NCBI GenBank assembly: GCA_038251535.1 | Contig: JBBSBF010000001.1 | Coordinates: 2,232-66,231 of the forward strand | DNA: 64,000 bases | Direction of reading: 5' to 3' | Origin: Minisyncoccia bacterium | GTDB lineage: Bacteria > Patescibacteriota > Minisyncoccia > Phycocordibacterales > UBA9973 | Shown: in pieces, positions 1,317-51,290 of the stretch | Layout of the letters: each line of letters begins with the position of its first letter | Numbering within the stretch: position 1 is the stretch's first letter | Translations under genes and position numbers: made by a program | The notes under the pieces: model-generated | Database searches by the model: none | What the model was told of the DNA's origin: nothing | The model's input: only the letters and a program-made list of their open reading frames with translations

Positions 1317-1321
1317 CAATG

Positions 1322-1356
1322 AAAAAATCCCGAGCTTCTAGCTCTGGGATTTTTTC
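1322..1356 (+). terminator. Rho-independent terminator hairpin after tRNA-Tyr
   Basis: aaaaaatcccgagc-ttcta-gctctgggattttttc: imperfect stem followed by a T-run. Confidence 0.5.
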
Positions 1357-1358
1357 AT

Positions 1359-1477
1359 ATGTCTCGGCGTGTGCAGGATTTGAACCGTAGGTGCCTGTTT
1401 TTAAAGAACGAGGCGACTATAAAAACAGTGCATCTCGACCGAAGGGAGAGGCATTTCTGCCCGACGCACAATCACAA
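1359..1477 (+). repeat. tRNA-3'-end-associated element, Tyr-locus copy: conserved ~55-nt core plus duplicated 3' end of tRNA-Tyr
   Basis: Ends ...ttctgcccgacgcacaa, duplicating the last 15 nt of tRNA-Tyr (ctgcccgacgcacaa). Core gaacgaggcgactataaaaacagtgcatctcgaccgaagggagaggc is ~80% identical to the cores at 45886-45938 and 47237-47289. Confidence 0.6.
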
Positions 1478-1671
1478 AAGCTTGGCTTTATGCCAGGCTT
1501 TTGTGATTGTGAGCAAGAGAGCGAGCAAACTGCTTTACTCACATCAGGTTTTGAAAGCCGCAGTCATGCCGGCGGCAGGCGAGGCGGGCGATTAACAAAT
1601 CTTGCCGAAGGAGGCTTCGTGAGTACTTTGGCTTTTATGAATGAAATGAAATAAAAGCTTTAGTAACTCGT

Positions 1672-1695
1672 GACTAAATCCTGCCCCCACATCAA
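1672..1695 (+). repeat. Degenerate third copy of the tRNA-Tyr 3' fragment
   Basis: gactaaatcctgcccccacatcaa versus the tRNA 3' end caaatcctgcccgacgcacaa. Confidence 0.3.
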
Positions 1696-1701
1696 TCTTA
1701 T

Positions 1702-29741: not shown

Positions 29742-30254
29742 TTATTTCTTCTTTAAGCTCTCAATTTCATTTGAGAGTTTTTTTAATGTCTCCTGTATCG
29801 AGATGAGCATGTCGTGCTCTTTCTTTTCTTGTTGTGCTTCTGTAGTGTCGTCTTCTTCTATTTCTTCGATATCTTCCTGGATCTCATCAACGTCTTCTTG
29901 GATTTCGTCCACATCCTTTTGGATCTCATCAACGTCTTTTTCAATCTCTTCCACGTCTTCTTGGATCTCGCCGACGTCTTCGGCGATCTCTTCTATGTCG
30001 GCCGTGTTTTTGTTCACGGACATTTGGATAAATATAGAGAGATAGATCGCCTCGAGCGATACGATCGTTGTCATGACAAGCAGCATTCGATCAAATGGAA
30101 CCCCAAAAATGGGAAGAGAGAATGCCACAACAAAGAGTATCGTGTGCGTCACGAGTGACGCCGTCGATCCGATCCACTTTGTCGCAATATCTGCCCCACG
30201 TTCCAATTTGATGTTACTTCGTTTTGAGAAAGGCATAGGTATATGTTGTAACAC
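29742..30254 (-). CDS. DUF1003-family membrane protein with C-terminal acidic heptad tandem repeats
   Basis: ADIATKWIGSTASLVTHTILFVVAF (DUF1003 N-terminal signature), two TMs, then (E/D)(D/E)V(D/E)EIQ repeated ~8 times. Confidence 0.6.
   Translation of the reverse strand: MLQHIPMPFSKRSNIKLERGADIATKWIGSTASLVTHTILFVVAFSLPIFGVPFDRMLLVMTTIVSLEAIYLSIFIQMSVNKNTADIEEIAEDVGEIQEDVEEIEKDVDEIQKDVDEIQEDVDEIQEDIEEIEEDDTTEAQQEKKEHDMLISIQETLKKLSNEIESLKKK
29850..30000. repeat. 21-bp tandem repeat array inside the DUF1003 gene (encodes EDVDEIQ heptads)
   Basis: atcttc(c/t)tggat(c/t)tc(a/g)tc(a/c)acgtc units reiterated. Confidence 0.7.
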
Positions 30255-45533: not shown

Positions 45534-45565
45534 CATACATTTTGTGTTATAAAATATCAGCGTCT

Positions 45566-45760
45566 CGGGGAATCGTTCTCATGCTCCCGTTTTCTTAAAC
45601 CGAAGGTTTGTAGAAAACGCAGTGCAGAGAGAGCGAAGCTCGAATCGTAGTACGACGCGAGTCCTACTATTGGGGAATCGTCTGGTGGTGGGAATACAAA
45701 TGAATCTGCTTTCATTTGTATCCGGTTCCGAAGGAATGCAGTGCTTTTTGTAAACAAAGC
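45566..45760 (+). repeat. Cluster of partial tRNA-Gln copies (5' acceptor/D-arm and T-arm fragments) with an 11-bp perfect hairpin
   Basis: ggggaatcgt appears at 45567 and 45672 as well as at the true tRNA start 45762; gcgagtcctac at 45655 mimics the T-arm 3' half; hairpin atacaaatgaa-tctgct-ttcatttgtat. Confidence 0.5.
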
Positions 45761-45831: not shown

Positions 45832-45959
45832 CTTTGAGTGCAAATCACTGCAAGGGGATTTTGGTTCCGTTTACTATAGGTCCCTATTTTTAATGAACGA
45901 AGTGATTATAAAAATAGTGGATCTCGACCAGCGGAAGAGGCGAGTCCTAGTTCCCCAGC
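45832..45959 (+). repeat. tRNA-3'-end-associated element, Gln-locus copy A1
   Basis: Pseudo anticodon arm ggggattttggttccgttta, conserved core gaacgaagtgattataaaaatagtggatctcgaccagcggaagaggc, then cgagtcctagttccccagc (exact copy of the tRNA-Gln 3' 17 nt). Near-identical to 47182-47307. Confidence 0.7.
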
Positions 45960-46009
45960 AAACAAAAAACTGTATTTAATAAATACAGTTTTAAAATAGT
46001 TTTTTAATT

Positions 46010-46354
46010 TTAAGCAATGCCTAAAATCTTCCGCTCTTCCGGTGAAAGCTTTTTAAGTGCAGCTTCTTTAATTTTCAAAATTTCTTTTTCATCATCAAAG
46101 TGCAAGGCTGTTCTTGATTCATTCATAGTAAATCCATTTTTACCGTCTGAAAGTACAAATACTTCATCAACCTTTACTCTGTTAGAGTCATTTTGTTGCC
46201 CAGCAAATGCTTTAGCAACATCAGGGTTTTTGAAGAAACCAAGAGAAACAGGATTTAGTCCGTCTACGTCTACTCGGTAGACTTCGCTCATGAGAACAAT
46301 TTTATAAGAACTTAAATCTTGTCCAATGAGTTTCTCAAGAAATTTGTTTATCAT
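46010..46354 (-). CDS. Hypothetical protein (114 aa), cassette ORF 1
   Basis: Intact ORF with minus-strand terminator aaaaaactgtattta-ataaatacagtttt at 45962-45995. Confidence 0.45.
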   Translation of the reverse strand: MINKFLEKLIGQDLSSYKIVLMSEVYRVDVDGLNPVSLGFFKNPDVAKAFAGQQNDSNRVKVDEVFVLSDGKNGFTMNESRTALHFDDEKEILKIKEAALKKLSPEERKILGIA

Positions 46355-46400
46355 TGTATGGTAGTTTTAATTTAAATGGATATTATAATATTTCCTTTAT

Positions 46401-46442
46401 TTGTCAATCAATATGGTTCTAACATCGTCCCAGACCCCTAGC
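46401..46442 (+). repeat. Cassette boundary repeat R1
   Basis: ttgtcaatcaatatggttctaacatcgtcccagacccctagc. Confidence 0.65.
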
Positions 46443-46480
46443 AAATAAAAAACTGCATCAATTGTTGATGCAGTTTAAAG

Positions 46481-47101
46481 CTATCTATTCCAGAAATAGG
46501 CGAACAGGAAAATAATCACACCGCCACAGATAACAATCCATAAACGTAAGAGGAAGACCCTGATAGGAGTGTCGTGTACTTCAATAGGTGAACTAAACCA
46601 ACCAAAAGGACTTATAAAGCGTTTAATAATATTTTTCTGTATTGCTGAATAGATGATTACCCATTCTGCAACAAAAACATCTTTTCCGTTTTGGTTCATT
46701 CCTTTGATCTGCCAGATACATTCTGCGTGACATTTTGTCTCTGGAAGTTTTTTCTGTAAAAGTGTATAGGTATACATTATCTTATCTCCCATATTTACAG
46801 GGCGTAGGTAACGAATATTGTTATAACCTTTTGCAATAATTTCTGTAGGTTCGGCAAACTTGAGAATTTTAAAAATAAAACTTTCAGCTTGTGCCAGTGT
46901 GCTAATACCATGTCTAGCTAATCCGCCAAGTTTTGATTTGAAGTTTGTGGTCGTAAAGGGGTTAATATGAATGGGATTTAAATCGCCAGTCAAAAATCCA
47001 AACAGGAGTGTCCACAAGTATTTCGCCTTTTTCTTTGGGGAAGTATAGGTGTAGTTTTCTGGAATAGTAGCTATGTCTGAGTAAGATTTAAGGTACAACA
47101 T
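46481..47101 (-). CDS. Hypothetical protein with C-terminal TM (206 aa), cassette ORF 2
   Basis: Intact ORF; minus-strand terminator ctgcatcaa-ttg-ttgatgcag at 46453-46475. Confidence 0.45.
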   Translation of the reverse strand: MLYLKSYSDIATIPENYTYTSPKKKAKYLWTLLFGFLTGDLNPIHINPFTTTNFKSKLGGLARHGISTLAQAESFIFKILKFAEPTEIIAKGYNNIRYLRPVNMGDKIMYTYTLLQKKLPETKCHAECIWQIKGMNQNGKDVFVAEWVIIYSAIQKNIIKRFISPFGWFSSPIEVHDTPIRVFLLRLWIVICGGVIIFLFAYFWNR

Positions 47102-47140
47102 GCTATATGATTTTTCTGTATATTACATACTATTTATAAT

Positions 47141-47181
47141 TTGTCAATAATTCGGTTCGAATATCGTCCCAGGCCCTCAGC
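47141..47181 (+). repeat. Cassette boundary repeat R2 (tRNA-T-arm-like)
   Basis: ttgtcaataattcggttcgaatatcgtcccaggccctcagc; followed directly by element copy A2, exactly as the tRNA-Gln 3' end is followed by A1. Confidence 0.65.
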
Positions 47182-47307
47182 TTTGAGTGCAAATCACTGC
47201 AAGGGGATTTTGGTTCCGTTTACTATAGGTCCCAATTTTAAGAAAGGGAGTGATTATAAAAATAGTGGATCTCGACCAACGGAAGAGGCGAGTCCTAGTT
47301 CCCCAAC
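47182..47307 (+). repeat. tRNA-3'-end-associated element, copy A2
   Basis: ~95% identical to 45832-45959; ends gagtcctagttccccaac. Confidence 0.7.
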
Positions 47308-47364
47308 AAGTAAAAATAAGCAATAAAAAAAGAAGCAATTTTAATGCTTCTTAATAACTTTGTA

Positions 47365-47640
47365 CTAAAACCCATCTAATAAAAGTCTTGTGAACGCTAT
47401 CGTCCACATGACGATCAATCCGTATATATCTGCAGGAATTGTTTTCTGTGCCCCAGAATGTATGCCGTAGCCGATTCGACCAATGAAGATCGTACCCGAT
47501 AGAAAGGCAAAGAGGAAACTGGAGTGTATATGATGAGTAGTTATTCCAAAATATAATTCGTACCCGCCACCAATAGTTACATAAATAAATACAATGATTT
47601 TTGTTATGTTGCCCCATTTAGCAGCTTTTAGACTATTCAT
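47365..47640 (-). CDS. Small membrane protein (91 aa), cassette ORF 3
   Basis: Three predicted TM helices; preferred over the overlapping W/C-rich 47351..47617 frame; terminator hairpin at ~47318-47348. Confidence 0.4.
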   Translation of the reverse strand: MNSLKAAKWGNITKIIVFIYVTIGGGYELYFGITTHHIHSSFLFAFLSGTIFIGRIGYGIHSGAQKTIPADIYGLIVMWTIAFTRLLLDGF

Positions 47641-47685
47641 TTGTAAACGTTTTAATTAATTGTATTATAGCATTATTATTCTATA

Positions 47686-47729
47686 TTGTCAATGTAATAC
47701 AAGTTCTAACATCGTCCCACAGCCTCAGC
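47686..47729 (+). repeat. Cassette boundary repeat R3
   Basis: ttgtcaatgtaatacaagttctaacatcgtcccacagcctcagc. Confidence 0.65.
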
Positions 47730-47776
47730 TCGTAAAATGGAAATAAAAAAGTCTCTCAAAAAAGAGAGACTCTGGT

Positions 47777-48178
47777 TTAATTATTTCCCGCATTTTTCTT
47801 TGAAAGTAAATCAAGCTGCATGTCGATATCTATATCTTCCAATTTTGTATTTGGAAGATCGATTTGTAGACCAATACTTACAGAAAATTTATGCCCTTCA
47901 TTATTTAGGATACCTTGCAATTTTTCTTGAAGGAAAAGGTATTCACCCATAGGGGGTAAAATAATTTCTATTTCTTCAACAATTATTCCTTTGCGTACAC
48001 AGCTTCCTGCAAGAAACCCTATAATATGAAGTAGCTCTTTTTCAAACCCACGCATGTCTTCATTTTTGATAATAACAGGAATAGAAGCGGGTAAAGATTT
48101 TGTATAGGGAAGTATAATTTTAAAGAACTGGTTAGGTTGACGAACACAATACACAGTTTCAAAAGAAGTATTTATCAT
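47777..48178 (-). CDS. Hypothetical protein (133 aa), cassette ORF 4
   Basis: Intact ORF; minus-strand terminator agtctctc-aaaaaa-gagagact at 47748-47771. Confidence 0.45.
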   Translation of the reverse strand: MINTSFETVYCVRQPNQFFKIILPYTKSLPASIPVIIKNEDMRGFEKELLHIIGFLAGSCVRKGIIVEEIEIILPPMGEYLFLQEKLQGILNNEGHKFSVSIGLQIDLPNTKLEDIDIDMQLDLLSKKNAGNN

Positions 48179-48217
48179 CTTTTATTGTTTTTAGTATAAT
48201 GCTATATATTAACAATA

Positions 48218-48259
48218 TTGTCAATGATTTTAGTTCCAATATCGTCCCACAGCGCCAGC
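48218..48259 (+). repeat. Cassette boundary repeat R4
   Basis: ttgtcaatgattttagttccaatatcgtcccacagcgccagc. Confidence 0.65.
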
Positions 48260-48296
48260 AAACACAAAGGAATCGAACTTTTAGTATAATTAAGGC

Positions 48297-48845
48297 ATGT
48301 CAATAAAAATTACATATTTTGTTCATGGGACTACGACTGATAATGAGAACAATATTTCTTCAGGATGGAAAGATGTCCCACTTTCTGATCTCGGAATTAA
48401 GCAATCAATAGAACTAAAGGAACAAACGAAATATCAGAAATTTGATATAGTATTTTGCTCTGATTTAAGGCGCGCAGTTGATTCAGCAAAACTATCTTGG
48501 GAAGGCATGTATGAGATTATTCCTGATGCACGACTACGAGAATGTAACTACGGAAGCTTGAATGGTGCATCATCAGACATAGTTGAACCAATGCAGGAGG
48601 ACGAATGTATTGTGAATAAATTTCCAGAAGGTGAAAGTTATGAAGACGTCAAGATTAGAATTACAGACTTCCTCAAATTTCTAAAAGCTAACTATGATGG
48701 CAAACATATTGCAATAGTTGCTCACAAGGCTCCACAACTAGCTTTGGACGTTTTGATCAAAGGTAAGATATGGAAACAAGCGCTCGCCGAAGATTGGCGT
48801 AAAACTAGGTCTTGGAAACCCGGCTGGGAATATCAGGTTAACTAA
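48297..48845 (+). CDS. Histidine phosphatase superfamily (phosphoglycerate-mutase-like) protein, cassette ORF 5
   Basis: ITYFVHGTTTDNENN (RHG-type catalytic His in the hGtT context)...GWKDVPLSDLGIKQS...; 182 aa. Confidence 0.65.
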   Translation: MSIKITYFVHGTTTDNENNISSGWKDVPLSDLGIKQSIELKEQTKYQKFDIVFCSDLRRAVDSAKLSWEGMYEIIPDARLRECNYGSLNGASSDIVEPMQEDECIVNKFPEGESYEDVKIRITDFLKFLKANYDGKHIAIVAHKAPQLALDVLIKGKIWKQALAEDWRKTRSWKPGWEYQVN

Positions 48846-48848
48846 TCA

Positions 48849-48876
48849 AAGTTCTAACAACGTCCCACAGCGCCAG
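48849..48876 (+). repeat. Cassette boundary repeat R5
   Basis: agttctaacaacgtcccacagcgccagc. Confidence 0.6.
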
Positions 48877-48912
48877 CAAGTAAGTTTCAACATAATTTGA
48901 TATAATCATTTC

Positions 48913-49491
48913 ATGAATGAAGAAATGAAAAGTGGTCCGAGCCCTGAAGAAAAACAAAGATTAGAAAAGATTGCACAAGAAAAGGAAGAAAGTGAATGGT
49001 TACAAGATTACTTATCGAGACAACCTCAAGAGGAAGTGACTACTCCAGAAGAAGCTGCTGAGCTCGTGGCACGTTTTGAAAAATTGACATTGGCCTTTGA
49101 TGCAGCCCATTCTCTTGAGGCATTGCTATCAATAGAAGAAATTTCTTCTGACCTTGCGGAGTTGTACCTCAATGCCCCCATACTCGACAATCCATTACGG
49201 ATAATTGCGGATATAAAAACTTTAGAAAAGCACAATCCTACACACGTACCTATCTATAAAGCAAAGATTGAGAGGCTTCAGTCTTTGGTGTTGAACGACG
49301 AAGAGAAAAGAATATATAACTTGCGAATGGCTGCGCGTAAAGATTATGATTATATGAATATGATATTGGGATTTATTAAAAAATGTTCTTCTTTACCCAG
49401 TGATCAAGTTGAAGCACTTGCAAAACGAAGTAAGACTTACTCAAACGCTATTGGAATACTCAGAAACAATAAAATTGTTCACGATCTTTGA
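48913..49491 (+). CDS. Hypothetical protein (192 aa), cassette ORF 6
   Basis: Intact ORF between R5 and R6. Confidence 0.45.
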   Translation: MNEEMKSGPSPEEKQRLEKIAQEKEESEWLQDYLSRQPQEEVTTPEEAAELVARFEKLTLAFDAAHSLEALLSIEEISSDLAELYLNAPILDNPLRIIADIKTLEKHNPTHVPIYKAKIERLQSLVLNDEEKRIYNLRMAARKDYDYMNMILGFIKKCSSLPSDQVEALAKRSKTYSNAIGILRNNKIVHDL

Positions 49492-49505
49492 TTTTGGCGC
49501 AAATA

Positions 49506-49533
49506 GGTTCCAACATCGTCCCACAGCGCCAGC
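49506..49533 (+). repeat. Cassette boundary repeat R6
   Basis: ggttccaacatcgtcccacagcgccagc. Confidence 0.6.
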
Positions 49534-49846
49534 AAAATAGTTATAAAAAAACCACCCGAAGGCAGTTTAAAATAAGTGTCCAAGTAAGAACAGACTAGGA
49601 CCGTTAAAGGTACGGCCGACGTTCTCGAGAATGATCTTGCTTTGTATTTCGAGTCAGTCATATCAAATGCAGTCTGTATACTTAGACACTTATTAGGTAA
49701 TCAATTCTTCATTCAGCTCTATCTTCTGGGAAATGATAAGGATGTCCGGTCTTGTACTTCAAGATCCTTTGCAGAAGCGGGTGCAGAGATGACAGAAAAC
49801 GTAATTCAATTTGAATGTAGCATAGCTCTTAAAAAAGTTCAAACAT

Positions 49847-49863
49847 CAACCTAGACCTTCAGC
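49847..49863 (+). repeat. Cassette boundary repeat R7 (degenerate)
   Basis: gttcaaacatcaacctagaccttcagc; followed by AAATAAAAAG and a minus-strand terminator, as for R1. Confidence 0.4.
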
Positions 49864-49901
49864 AAATAAAAAGAGTGGCTGTTAGCCACTCTGCAAGTAT
49901 A

Positions 49902-50243
49902 TTATTTATTGCAATATTTTTTTGCTGCGGTATGTAAAACTTTAGGAATATTATTCAGAGCAAGAATCGATTTCGTTTGATATACATACGAAAGTTTCAA
50001 GGATTGAAAATTTTTAACAAAATATTGTTCCACTGATTCTATCGAATCAGTTTCTACTTTTTCATTTCTTGCACATTTACAGATGAACTGAATGAAATCA
50101 CTTTCACACTCAGCTATTTTGATATGAGGTACATTTCTGAGGGGAACAGTTTCTATTTTAGAATTTTCTCTCCGCCTTGTGAATAATACAATTGCAATTA
50201 TTATTGCAACAAAAAGCACTGATAAAATAAATATTAATGTCAT
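49902..50243 (-). CDS. Hypothetical protein with N-terminal TM (113 aa), cassette ORF 7
   Basis: Intact ORF; minus-strand terminator agagtggct-gtt-agccactct at 49872-49892. Confidence 0.4.
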   Translation of the reverse strand: MTLIFILSVLFVAIIIAIVLFTRRRENSKIETVPLRNVPHIKIAECESDFIQFICKCARNEKVETDSIESVEQYFVKNFQSLKLSYVYQTKSILALNNIPKVLHTAAKKYCNK

Positions 50244-50284
50244 ATCTATATATTTTATTCTACTATACTCAATTTAATTTATAT

Positions 50285-50309
50285 GTCAACATCAACCCAA
50301 ACAGCTAGC
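50285..50309 (+). repeat. Cassette boundary repeat R8 (weak)
   Basis: gtcaacatcaacccaaacagctagc. Confidence 0.25.
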
Positions 50310-50344
50310 GAACACTTTTCGGTCAGATTTGATACAATGAAATT

Positions 50345-50554
50345 ATGCAAAAAATAGCAACACGGATATTTATCTACGCATCTATCGTTTTTGGAATTAT
50401 CGGTATGTTGATTGTGGTGACTGCTTCTGGACCAGATATGCCGGATTCAACTGCAACCAAGGTATTGATCCGGCTCTTGTTCGCTACGGTCTTTGTGATC
50501 CTGCCTTCGTTTGCTCTAAGTCTGGCCAGTAAGTACCTAAACGATAAATCATAA
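50345..50554 (+). CDS. Small two-TM membrane protein (69 aa), cassette ORF 8
   Basis: Hydrophobic ORF after R8. Confidence 0.35.
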   Translation: MQKIATRIFIYASIVFGIIGMLIVVTASGPDMPDSTATKVLIRLLFATVFVILPSFALSLASKYLNDKS

Positions 50555-50579
50555 GTACACCACATCCTTAGTTTGTAAA

Positions 50580-51290
50580 TTGGAAATAAAAAAAGCACCT
50601 ACGGGAAAACAAATGAAACTGGTAACGTACAAATTTTTAGAAAACATCATCAACGTTTTTCGCGGGCGTACTATCCTTTGGCACATCTTATTTTGGGGAG
50701 TCAGCTTTGTGTTAGTGAGCAGCGGATTTGACTGGTGGTACTTTGAGCACACTCGTGGAGCGACGGTCCAAGCGATATTGTTCCCACCGGTATTTCTCGG
50801 AATGCTTGTTCCGTTTGGTATGTTCTTCGTGCTCATCACCTGTGGAATGGTGCGAAAAAGTACATCTCTCATACACACTGCCTTTGCCACTGCTCAAGCG
50901 GGCATCCTCGGCTTTGGTATTTCTTCACTCTACAAAGTGTTCACTGGTCGCTCAGGACCACCTGGATTTAGGTCAATGGTGAGTACACTATCCGACACGA
51001 GTCATGGGTTTAAGTTTGGATTTTACCGAGGTGGGGCCTTTCAAGGCTGGCCTTCGTCGCATACTACGGTGGCATTTGCTATGTCAGCCGCTCTTGTTGC
51101 GCTCTATCCCGGCAACGACACAAAGAGCAAGGTCATTCGTTTTGTCGCCATGCTCTATGCGCTCTATATCGGCATCGGAGTCTCAGTCAACATTCATTGG
51201 TTTTCTGACTTTGTCGCCGGAGCTATCTTGGGGACACTCATCGGGCTCGTCGTCGGCAAAGCTTTTTACAACCGATTAAAAAGGCAATAA
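50580..51290 (+). CDS. PAP2-family (type 2 phosphatidic acid phosphatase-like) membrane phosphatase
   Basis: Multi-TM; PAP2 motif elements R(S)GPPGFRS, PSSHT, S...H...D (SVNIHWFSD). Confidence 0.75.
   Translation: MEIKKAPTGKQMKLVTYKFLENIINVFRGRTILWHILFWGVSFVLVSSGFDWWYFEHTRGATVQAILFPPVFLGMLVPFGMFFVLITCGMVRKSTSLIHTAFATAQAGILGFGISSLYKVFTGRSGPPGFRSMVSTLSDTSHGFKFGFYRGGAFQGWPSSHTTVAFAMSAALVALYPGNDTKSKVIRFVAMLYALYIGIGVSVNIHWFSDFVAGAILGTLIGLVVGKAFYNRLKRQ

Follow-up and report, generated by a model that had tools for sequence, protein, structure and literature searches.

A tRNA-linked structured element with arms that copy the adjacent tRNA, and older tRNA-end copies, behind tRNA-Tyr of a Minisyncoccia bacterium

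Introduction

What lies between the tRNA-Tyr gene and the downstream PAS-sensor gene of a Minisyncoccia bacterium, and how did several copies of the end of that tRNA come to stand there? The question arises from a 64,000-nt stretch of contig JBBSBF010000001.1 (assembly GCA_038251535.1, positions 2,232 to 66,231 of the forward strand), which we call the window and in whose numbering all positions are given unless another locus is named. An earlier note on this DNA, made from its letters alone, had described a serial duplication of the tRNA 3′ end, together with a hairpin and a GC-rich stretch in a gene-free segment. We find that this interval holds a protein-less structured element that occurs in several lineages of the candidate phyla radiation (CPR), whose arms copy whichever tRNA precedes it, and which is in neither Rfam nor the literature that we searched. 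Serial tRNA-end scars are themselves known as a kind of feature, and successive integrations that leave serial partial tRNA copies are documented for other streamlined bacteria (bioRxiv 10.1101/2020.12.28.424599). Folded single-stranded attachment (att) sites are documented for integron attC and for CTXphi, and are presented in that form to tyrosine recombinases (PMC4792948).

Results

A structured element separates the first two copies of the tRNA-Tyr 3′ end

The tRNA-Tyr (GTA) gene (1234-1316/1317, + strand), called by ARAGORN and scored at 63.7 bits by the Rfam tRNA model, does not encode CCA. Its T-stem 3′ strand, acceptor 3′ strand and discriminator, with 4 nt of trailer, form a block (CTGCCCGACGCACAAT, 1305-1320, +) that recurs exactly, over 16 nt, at 1457-1472; when extended, the two copies agree at 91% over 23 nt. 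The earlier note had seen this copy and placed it at 1463-1477, about 6 nt off. A degenerate T-loop/T-stem copy, AAATCTTGCCG (1597-1607, +; 82% identity to the tRNA piece), follows, and then the oldest sense copy of the tRNA-Tyr end, AAATCCTGCCCCCACATCAA (1676-1695, +), also degenerate, which has orthologous copies in two related loci, L025 and L026. Within the whole window the 11-mer AAATCCTGCCC occurs only at 1300, in the tRNA, and at 1676. The copies at 1305-1320, 1457-1472, ~1597-1607 and 1676-1695 form a series of growing degeneracy, which bears out the serial pattern described earlier, adds one member to it and confirms its degenerate third copy; all features of the earlier note are real, with coordinates a few bases off. 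Direct repeats of the tRNA 3′ end bracket the inserted DNA, as in integration scars, exactly at 1305-1320/1457-1472 and in degenerate form at 1597 and 1676.

Immediately behind the tRNA stands a bidirectional terminator hairpin, T1 (1319-1358, no strand assigned), which has an A-run and a T-run on its flanks and arms (1319-1331/1346-1358) that are 100% complementary. The first unit proper (1366-1472) begins with a 5′ arm (1366-1386, +) that is an antisense copy of the 3′ part of tRNA-Tyr; its outer, acceptor part is degenerate, while 1373-1386 is a perfect 14-nt reverse complement of the T-arm at 1295-1308. The 76-nt conserved core (1377-1452, +), with the junction AACCGTAGG, scores 95.9 bits against our covariance model R1 and contains a long hairpin, P2 (1391-1433, +), supported by covariation, and a second hairpin, P3 (1434-1450, +), which has a tandem G.A internal loop and is backed by a variant at locus L010. 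A 3′ arm (1453-1472, +) closes the unit as a sense copy of the tRNA-Tyr end, in which the exact identity block occupies 1457-1472. Neither the antisense arm nor the core had appeared in the earlier note.

This repeat of roughly 100 nt is present three times in the window, once at the tRNA-Tyr locus and twice in an array of gene cassettes behind tRNA-Gln, where one core follows the tRNA (45866-45941, +) and a second lies inside the array (47215-47289, +). A 21-nt pattern of the core, ATCTCGACCNNNGGRAGAGGC, likewise occurs three times, against 0.02 occurrences expected by chance. Directly after the core comes a sense copy of the local tRNA end, 16/16 at tRNA-Tyr and 19/19 at tRNA-Gln. The description of the tRNA-Tyr locus as a gene-less miniature of the tRNA-Gln array holds insofar as its first unit and the two array copies are one element; it fails as an account of plain duplication, the unit being a structured element with antisense and sense arms.

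The element recurs behind eight tRNA species

A scan of species-representative genomes finds the core in three metagenome-assembled genomes (MAGs) of Saccharibacteria and one of Paceibacterota, and a metagenome scan adds 10 true core loci as well as four matches (L008, L013, L016 and L019) that we rejected as chance. R1 recovers all 17 copies, 3 in the window and 14 at other loci, at 68-101 bits, and also detects the copy at L026. In every locus for which ARAGORN calls a tRNA, the element lies just 3′ of it and in the same orientation; outside this count stand L009, where no upstream tRNA is called, L014, which lies inside an array, and L026, whose contig starts within the element. Eight tRNA species precede it: Tyr, Gln, Lys-TTT, Arg-TCT, Arg-GCG, Ser-CGA, Gly-GCC and Val-GAC.

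The layout is constant, running from the tRNA through a short hairpin or full terminator to the antisense 5′ arm, the core and the sense 3′ arm; the element itself measures ~110-150 nt. The 5′ arm extends, in antisense, from the acceptor 3′ strand of the local tRNA through its T-loop and is perfect mainly in the T-loop/T-stem part. The 3′ arm begins exactly at C56, after GAGAGG, reaches 1-4 nt beyond the tRNA end and, trailer nucleotides included, is identical to the local tRNA end over 16-23 nt in most loci. At the orthologous loci L004 and L006 the arms follow the T-stem of each tRNA-Lys, CCTAC in one and CCTGC in the other. Rfam, applied at gathering and permissive thresholds to the window, the tRNA-Tyr and tRNA-Gln loci and the relatives, returns tRNAs only, and at E<=10 over 1200-1760 and the tRNA-Gln locus it gives nothing relevant from families that include T-box, transfer-messenger RNA (tmRNA), signal recognition particle (SRP) RNA, Y RNA, IS605-orfB and HEARO. 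Literature searches for a tRNA-linked hairpin element in CPR bacteria likewise found nothing relevant.

Two short motifs recur around the element. CG(A/T)AGTG stands just 5′ of the antisense arm in the spacers of L004, L005, L012 and L058, at different tRNAs, and GAAATTAyTTGTGACCACA lies 20-30 nt past the sense arm at L006 (~4045), L012 (~1810) and L058 (~1138).

Covariation and strand asymmetry point to a folded single strand

Six pairs of P2 carry changes on both sides, a number reached in 0/500 shuffles, and L015 and L010/L017 have wholly different P2 sequences in which pairing is kept. G.U pairs fill 22 cells, one of them invariant. In 5/5 loci tested the fold of the tRNA-sense strand is better than that of its complement, and pairing of the two arms (P1) is present in the minimum-energy folds of five loci. 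Because of this better sense-strand fold and the G.U pairs, the functional form would be single-stranded and of tRNA polarity, whether as RNA or as DNA of the top strand; sequence comparison and modelled folds together support the view that the element probably acts as a folded nucleic acid and not as a protein site in double-stranded DNA.

A divergent arrangement is that of L010 (45 bits), where tRNA-Ala is directly followed by a P2 with its strands swapped and by a P3 that is a perfect 8-bp helix. Because this P3 variant pairs perfectly, we prefer a P3 model in which UCUCGACC pairs with GGGAGAGG around a tandem G.A internal loop to the RNAalifold alternative. At L010 7341-7470 the core junction CCGTAGGTsCC falls on CCCCGTAGGTCCA, with which tRNA-Ala(GGC) ends; a terminator follows P2 and P3, and there are no arms. 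This could be the core in an ancestral form or in the form of a trailer.

Coding potential was considered and set aside. The only open reading frames (ORFs) that span the segment, of 78, 87 and 62 aa, give a single Pfam match (E 0.15), which falls below the curated cut-off and is not significant; the earlier note had called the segment gene-free. A coding core is rejected for this reason, and also by TAG in frame in about half of the copies and by the full replacement of the hairpin sequence in L015 and L010. The reverse complement of the 5′ arm resembles a tRNA 3′ end; a minus-strand tRNA-like gene is nonetheless rejected, as ARAGORN calls none, the conserved G.U would turn into A.C, and minus strands fold worse. 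A tmRNA-like tag frame, with GCA after AAAAAUAGU, is likewise rejected, as it has no consistent stop or tag.

The block varies among relatives that keep the flanking genes

Relatives of the tRNA-Tyr locus, found through PAS sensor homologues of 46-58% identity, keep the sensor and SpoU genes. A tRNA-Tyr end lies upstream of the sensor in all of them except L029, where the upstream gene is UvrC, and L026, where the contig begins within the element; where the flank is long enough, as in L022, ClpB can be seen as well. L022 and L028 are element-free and carry a T1-type terminator followed by the sensor promoter, and this post-tRNA-Tyr terminator is orthologous to T1 of the window, with compensatory changes in the stem. 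L027, also element-free, has directly after tRNA-Tyr a terminator orthologous to a second hairpin of the window, T2 (1467-1511). Unoccupied sites accordingly exist at the ClpB-tRNA-Tyr-sensor locus (L022, L027 and L028) and, at tRNA-Lys, in L052.

Occupied relatives differ from one another. L026 carries the canonical element in the same place (81.8 bits), with an insert of roughly 55 nt and a final AAATCCTGCC copy. In L025 a ~100-nt structured RNA is fused to tRNA-Tyr-CCA, and a terminator follows it; next come two arms, the first antisense and the second sense, with a two-hairpin core of another kind between them, and then a tail, TAGTAACTCGTGACCAAATCC, that is common to 1660-1686 of the window. 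L023 and L024 have the same fused RNA as L025 and an antisense arm broken by a hairpin. The fused ~100-nt structured sequence (L023 658-765, L024 40-150, L025 30-135) is conserved between relatives and not in Rfam, and its closing stem pairs with the tRNA GCACCA.

In a tree of the sensor proteins L022 is sister to L025 and L023; from this placement and the differing locus content it follows that the tRNA-Tyr locus turns over quickly. The earlier note had held a conserved sensor leader, present in all relatives without variation, to be the finding that would speak against its view. We looked for it and find instead that the block varies: L022, L027 and L028 lack it, and what L023 and L025 carry is different.

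A second locus, tRNA-Lys in Saccharibacteria, shows the same variation

The interval between tRNA-Lys and a thioredoxin-like gene carries the canonical element in L004 and L006 and is empty in L052-L055. In L058-L061 it holds a core-less hairpin in which the tRNA-Lys acceptor strand is copied once in antisense and once in sense. The recurring feature is the pair of antisense and sense arms; the centre varies. From these states of the tRNA-Lys locus it follows that these bacteria have, behind their tRNAs, a general hotspot of insertion.

Two further observations concern the same site. The hairpin of L058 (1051-1125; also in L059-L061) is simple, with acceptor 3′ strand copies in the order GTGCTCCAGTA-TGAAA-TACTGGGGGCAC. 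Close relatives of L004 contain, at the tRNA-Lys downstream site, non-coding inserts of ~380 nt that are mutually unrelated (L050 821-1200 and L056 816-1200).

Putative older layers precede the sensor gene and include the GC-rich stretch

We read 1473-1695 as older layers, comprising T2, a hairpin H2, a possible decayed core, the degenerate tRNA piece, a long hairpin H4 and the oldest tRNA-end copy. Folding of this segment, which the earlier note had proposed, gives a strong fold on the + strand (-78.9 kcal/mol, z = -4.2), compared with -72.4 kcal/mol and z = -3.4 for the complement. T2 (1467-1511, no strand assigned) has 20-nt arms (1467-1486/1492-1511) that are 95% complementary, and its stem begins inside the sense copy (CACAAT). 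The "perfect 9-bp hairpin" described earlier, whose named arms are CACAAAAGC (1473-1481) and GCTTTTGTG (1497-1505), is real and belongs to this longer stem, a tRNA-type terminator orthologous to that of L027. H2 (UGUGAG...CUCACA; 1508-1543, +) is seen in the minimum-energy fold, and no homologue of it was found. A possible decayed second core (1534-1615, +) gives a weak full-length match to R1 (4.5 bits, E 0.09-0.28). H4 (1617-1673, +) contains G.U pairs, its apex matches that of the R1 P2 at 11.6 bits, and it resembles T2 as well; L025 conserves its 3′ strand together with the copy that follows (TAGTAACTCGTGAC.AAATCC), and L026 does so in part.

The GC-rich stretch noticed earlier is real and lies at 1557-1590, where 82.4% GC, against a window mean of 42.5%, makes it the most GC-rich 34-nt window in the 64 kb. 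On a larger scale it is ordinary, the surrounding 100 nt (55%) and 200 nt (46%) both being unremarkable. It has no detectable homologue. It lies inside the possible decayed core, at the place that P2 would take, and may be part of a decayed older (middle) unit; it may, as was proposed earlier, be a structured RNA or a foreign remnant, and at scales of at least 100 nt it does not look foreign. An SRP- or Alu-like origin was considered and rejected, as the similarity is ~16 nt of low complexity seen by eye and Rfam gives no support.

Surroundings of the tRNA-Gln copies

The array 3′ of tRNA-Gln (45833-50600) consists of ~10 one-gene cassettes, many with their own TTGACA/TATAAT promoter and terminator, each closed by a repeat of roughly 30 nt, GTTCnAAyATCGTCCCAs...CAGC. 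A motif of this repeat, ATCGTCCCAC, also stands before the element at L014, a metagenome locus that is unrelated. Among the array ORFs (45833-50600) no integrase or recombinase is found. On the 5′ side of tRNA-Gln (45560-45760) partial copies of the tRNA-Gln 5′ end, GGGGAATCGT, stand at ~45567 and ~45672, and therefore duplication has occurred on both sides of this tRNA; a T-arm-like GAGTCCTAC is present at ~45660, also upstream of tRNA-Gln. Elsewhere in the window, a minus-strand ORF contains seven 21-nt repeats in tandem (29849-30016), which suggests a repetitive, acidic segment in its protein.

Discussion

Comparison with known systems

The closest known arrangement is that of serial att scars. 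Genomic-island accretion, cis-mobilizable elements (CIMEs) and tycheposon arrays likewise have direct repeats of a tRNA 3′ end that flank the insert (bioRxiv 10.1101/2020.12.28.424599; PMC5704250), older copies that lie farther from the tRNA and are more degenerate, and relatives in which the site is occupied or empty; the gene-carrying tRNA-Gln array of the same genome has the same serial scar pattern. Unlike such scars, the units here are only ~70-150 nt long, without an integrase or other gene, they bear an extra antisense tRNA-end copy and a conserved structured core, and the native T1 appears to stay beside the tRNA, with a crossover that is perhaps not inside the tRNA. We find no integrase or recombinase gene in or beside the element among the window ORFs, the array ORFs and the flanks of 10 copies.

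In geometry the element resembles attC and the CTXphi attP(+), in which two inverted target-like copies, with a spacer tens of nucleotides long between them, pair to mimic a double-stranded target in a strand-specific manner (PMC4792948). The match to a CTXphi-type hairpin is architectural only: antisense arm, 62-76-nt core, sense arm. Val et al. (2005) reportedly describe the CTX site geometry with the integrated order of inverted copy, spacer and direct copy joined to the host flank, which is also the order seen here. The target here is a tRNA T-loop and 3′ end and not attI or dif, and the spacer is highly conserved in sequence, unlike attC centres. The R and L boxes of attC (RYYYAAC/GTTRRRY) are not found, as the arms are local tRNA copies with no conserved R-box; no intI-like ORF with attI and cassettes is present among the window and array ORFs, and the repeat of the tRNA-Gln array is a different 30-nt sequence. 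Nor do we see a dif target, an association with XerCD or a filamentous phage cargo, the target-like sequence being a tRNA end without phage genes.

As an RNA, the element recalls the tRNA-like domain of tmRNA, the Y RNA YrlA and the 3′ETS-leuZ sponge, whose stems imitate acceptor and T-stem, and, like tRNA trailers and mimics, it lies next to a tRNA in the same orientation and is probably co-transcribed with it in many loci. Unlike these mimics, it copies the adjacent tRNA and has no fixed identity, and it has no T-loop, CCA or tag frame. With miniature inverted-repeat transposable elements (MITEs), repetitive extragenic palindromes (REP) and bacterial interspersed mosaic elements (BIME) it shares small size, lack of coding, hairpin formation, intergenic multi-copy occurrence and frequent proximity to terminators. 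It differs from them in that its inverted arms vary by locus, matching the local tRNA, its placement is tRNA-linked and strand-specific, and no transposase family is implicated; the constant terminal inverted repeats and short target-site duplication of a MITE are not found, as the arms differ from locus to locus. Bridge RNA of IS110 and the omega or reRNA of TnpB/IscB do not fit either, as no such ORF is adjacent and the arms are complementary to each other on the same tRNA segment.

Proposed serial insertion through a folded attachment site

We favor, at a probability of roughly 45%, a model in which small insertions with hairpin att sites accumulate serially at a tRNA hotspot. In this model 1321-1695 would consist of two or three small insertions, all protein-less, stacked 3′ of tRNA-Tyr, and the newest unit (1321-1472) would be an intact member of an uncatalogued CPR element family. 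As a single strand, the two arms would pair into a duplex copy of the tRNA gene from T-loop to 3′ end, a folded att site; a recombinase encoded elsewhere would exchange strands between this hairpin and the tRNA region, and replication would fix the product. The identity block would be left duplicated (1305-1320 and 1457-1472), and the earlier terminator (1467-1511) and older scars (~1597-1607 and 1676-1695) would be pushed toward the sensor gene. To the observed architecture, conservation, covariation, strand asymmetry, presence or absence in relatives and T2 orthology the model adds single-stranded recombination, a recombinase and a direction of events, all of which we infer. By sequence comparison, a common 16-nt block stands between different flanks, as tRNA-block-T1 and as core-block-T2, in a manner that looks like att logic, and L027 resembles an unoccupied tRNA-block-T2.

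Several observations weigh against this model. The search for a recombinase came back empty: a phmmer search of the window ORFs with a XerD-based query finds no tyrosine recombinase, and the ORFs beside 10 other copies appear housekeeping-like on inspection of their translations, with no recombinase among them. Phage and plasmid BLAST gives no match, and pattern scans of IMG/VR return only chance matches, in GC-rich coding DNA and unrelated phage intergenic regions, none of which gives a score with R1. The arms of the Tyr copy pair imperfectly. The relatives give two pictures of the crossover: L027, where T2 is native, fits a site inside the tRNA, and T1 is orthologous in the element-free L022 and L028; on this T1 orthology the simplest history would be insertion after T1 and not inside the tRNA, and the 16-nt duplication would therefore not be a classical attL/attR pair. 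A 20-nt tail downstream of the sense arm is common to L006, at tRNA-Lys, and L012, at tRNA-Arg, which suggests from sequence that the sense arm can be internal to a mobile unit; the element, or a companion unit, may extend past it. Finally, the core of L010 stands directly behind tRNA-Ala, armless and terminator-ended, like a trailer RNA, and the unpaired core nucleotides hardly vary from phylum to phylum, a constancy unusual in the centres of hairpin att sites and more typical of functional RNA.

These last points lead to the main rival, which is possible rather than probable and is compatible with mobility: a small structured RNA gene or functional tRNA 3′ trailer, co-transcribed with the tRNA or made by read-through. 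Its arm stem would mimic an acceptor/T-arm minihelix, to be excised by RNase P, RNase Z or RNase III; its core would act in trans, for instance through protein binding or as a decoy to an enzyme that recognises tRNA ends, and the serial copies would be by-products of local duplication and deletion. The plus-strand-specific fold with its G.U pairs, the near-invariance of unpaired core nucleotides and the change of the P3 tandem G.A motif to Watson-Crick pairs in L010 all suit an RNA, and tRNA-Ala, P2/P3 and terminator at that locus resemble a single transcription unit. No strong terminator intervenes between tRNA and element at the tRNA-Gln locus, L004, L005, L012, L018 and L021, and where none does the element must therefore be transcribed as a tRNA trailer, with the same fold as RNA too; a terminator follows the element at tRNA-Gln, L018 and L021. 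In eight loci including tRNA-Tyr, however, a strong bidirectional terminator stands between the two, and no promoter would fit in the space left. Decay often affects the outer half of the 5′ arm, which makes the acceptor mimic frequently incomplete, and in most loci the sense arm copies the gene trailer and not CCA, which argues for an origin at the DNA level. The element is dispensable in close relatives, and a role as RNA leaves the match of the arms to the adjacent tRNA unexplained.

Similar in shape is a guide RNA for an RNA-guided recombinase or nuclease, of the kind of a bridge RNA, omega or reRNA or homing CRISPR RNA, in which the core would be the scaffold and the 3′ arm a guide to the tRNA gene end. 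A conserved scaffold hairpin does run directly into a locus-specific segment of 16-23 nt identical to the tRNA gene, and the arms differ between elements at different tRNAs that have scaffold and tail in common; we nevertheless consider this improbable, as a TnpB, IscB, IS110 or Cas-like ORF lies beside no copy (array ORFs and the flanks of 10 copies), both arms cover the same tRNA segment and pair together, unlike the guide halves of a bridge RNA, and the transposon-associated RNA families of Rfam give no match. A leader, 5′ untranslated region or riboswitch of the PAS-sensor gene is hardly credible and is largely refuted by the relatives, three of which (L022, L027 and L028) keep the sensor gene without the block. 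The strong fold directly upstream of that gene on the same strand, and the conservation in L025 of its last ~25 nt (TAGTAACTCGTGAC.AAATCC), would suit a leader; the same element stands elsewhere upstream of unrelated, even convergent, genes, and Rfam has no matching family. Template switching, with replication slippage at tRNA hairpins, can yield quasi-palindromes, and the middle part (1512-1675) is without a clear homologue; chance or neutral debris of this kind is very improbable overall, being refuted for 1366-1472 by 17 copies of the core at 8 tRNA species in different phyla, with covariation, and by the three occurrences of the 21-nt pattern in the window where 0.02 are expected, and possible only for details of 1512-1675.

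Implications for CPR genomes

Beyond serial hairpin-att insertion as such, we entertain, as a doubtful possibility, that this is a programmable tRNA-linked element: a protein-less mobile unit that integrates in the form of a folded single strand, its stem being rewritten for each new tRNA target, or a small RNA of a new class that mimics the acceptor/T-arm of its neighbor on a constant scaffold and might, for instance, serve to sense tRNA 3′-end enzymes or to divert them as a decoy. If either form were true, the cassette arrays seen behind tRNA-Gln in CPR bacteria would also be seeded by this element. CPR bacteria, or Patescibacteria, have tiny genomes with few recognised mobile elements and very variable gene content. 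An element found at at least eight tRNA species in several of their lineages, and within a cassette array, could point to the recombination machinery behind their variable regions, or it could represent a class of tRNA-mimicking RNA that has so far gone unrecognised. In both cases model R1 and the core pattern would offer a searchable motif with which to study tRNA biology and the plasticity of genomes in organisms that are difficult to grow.

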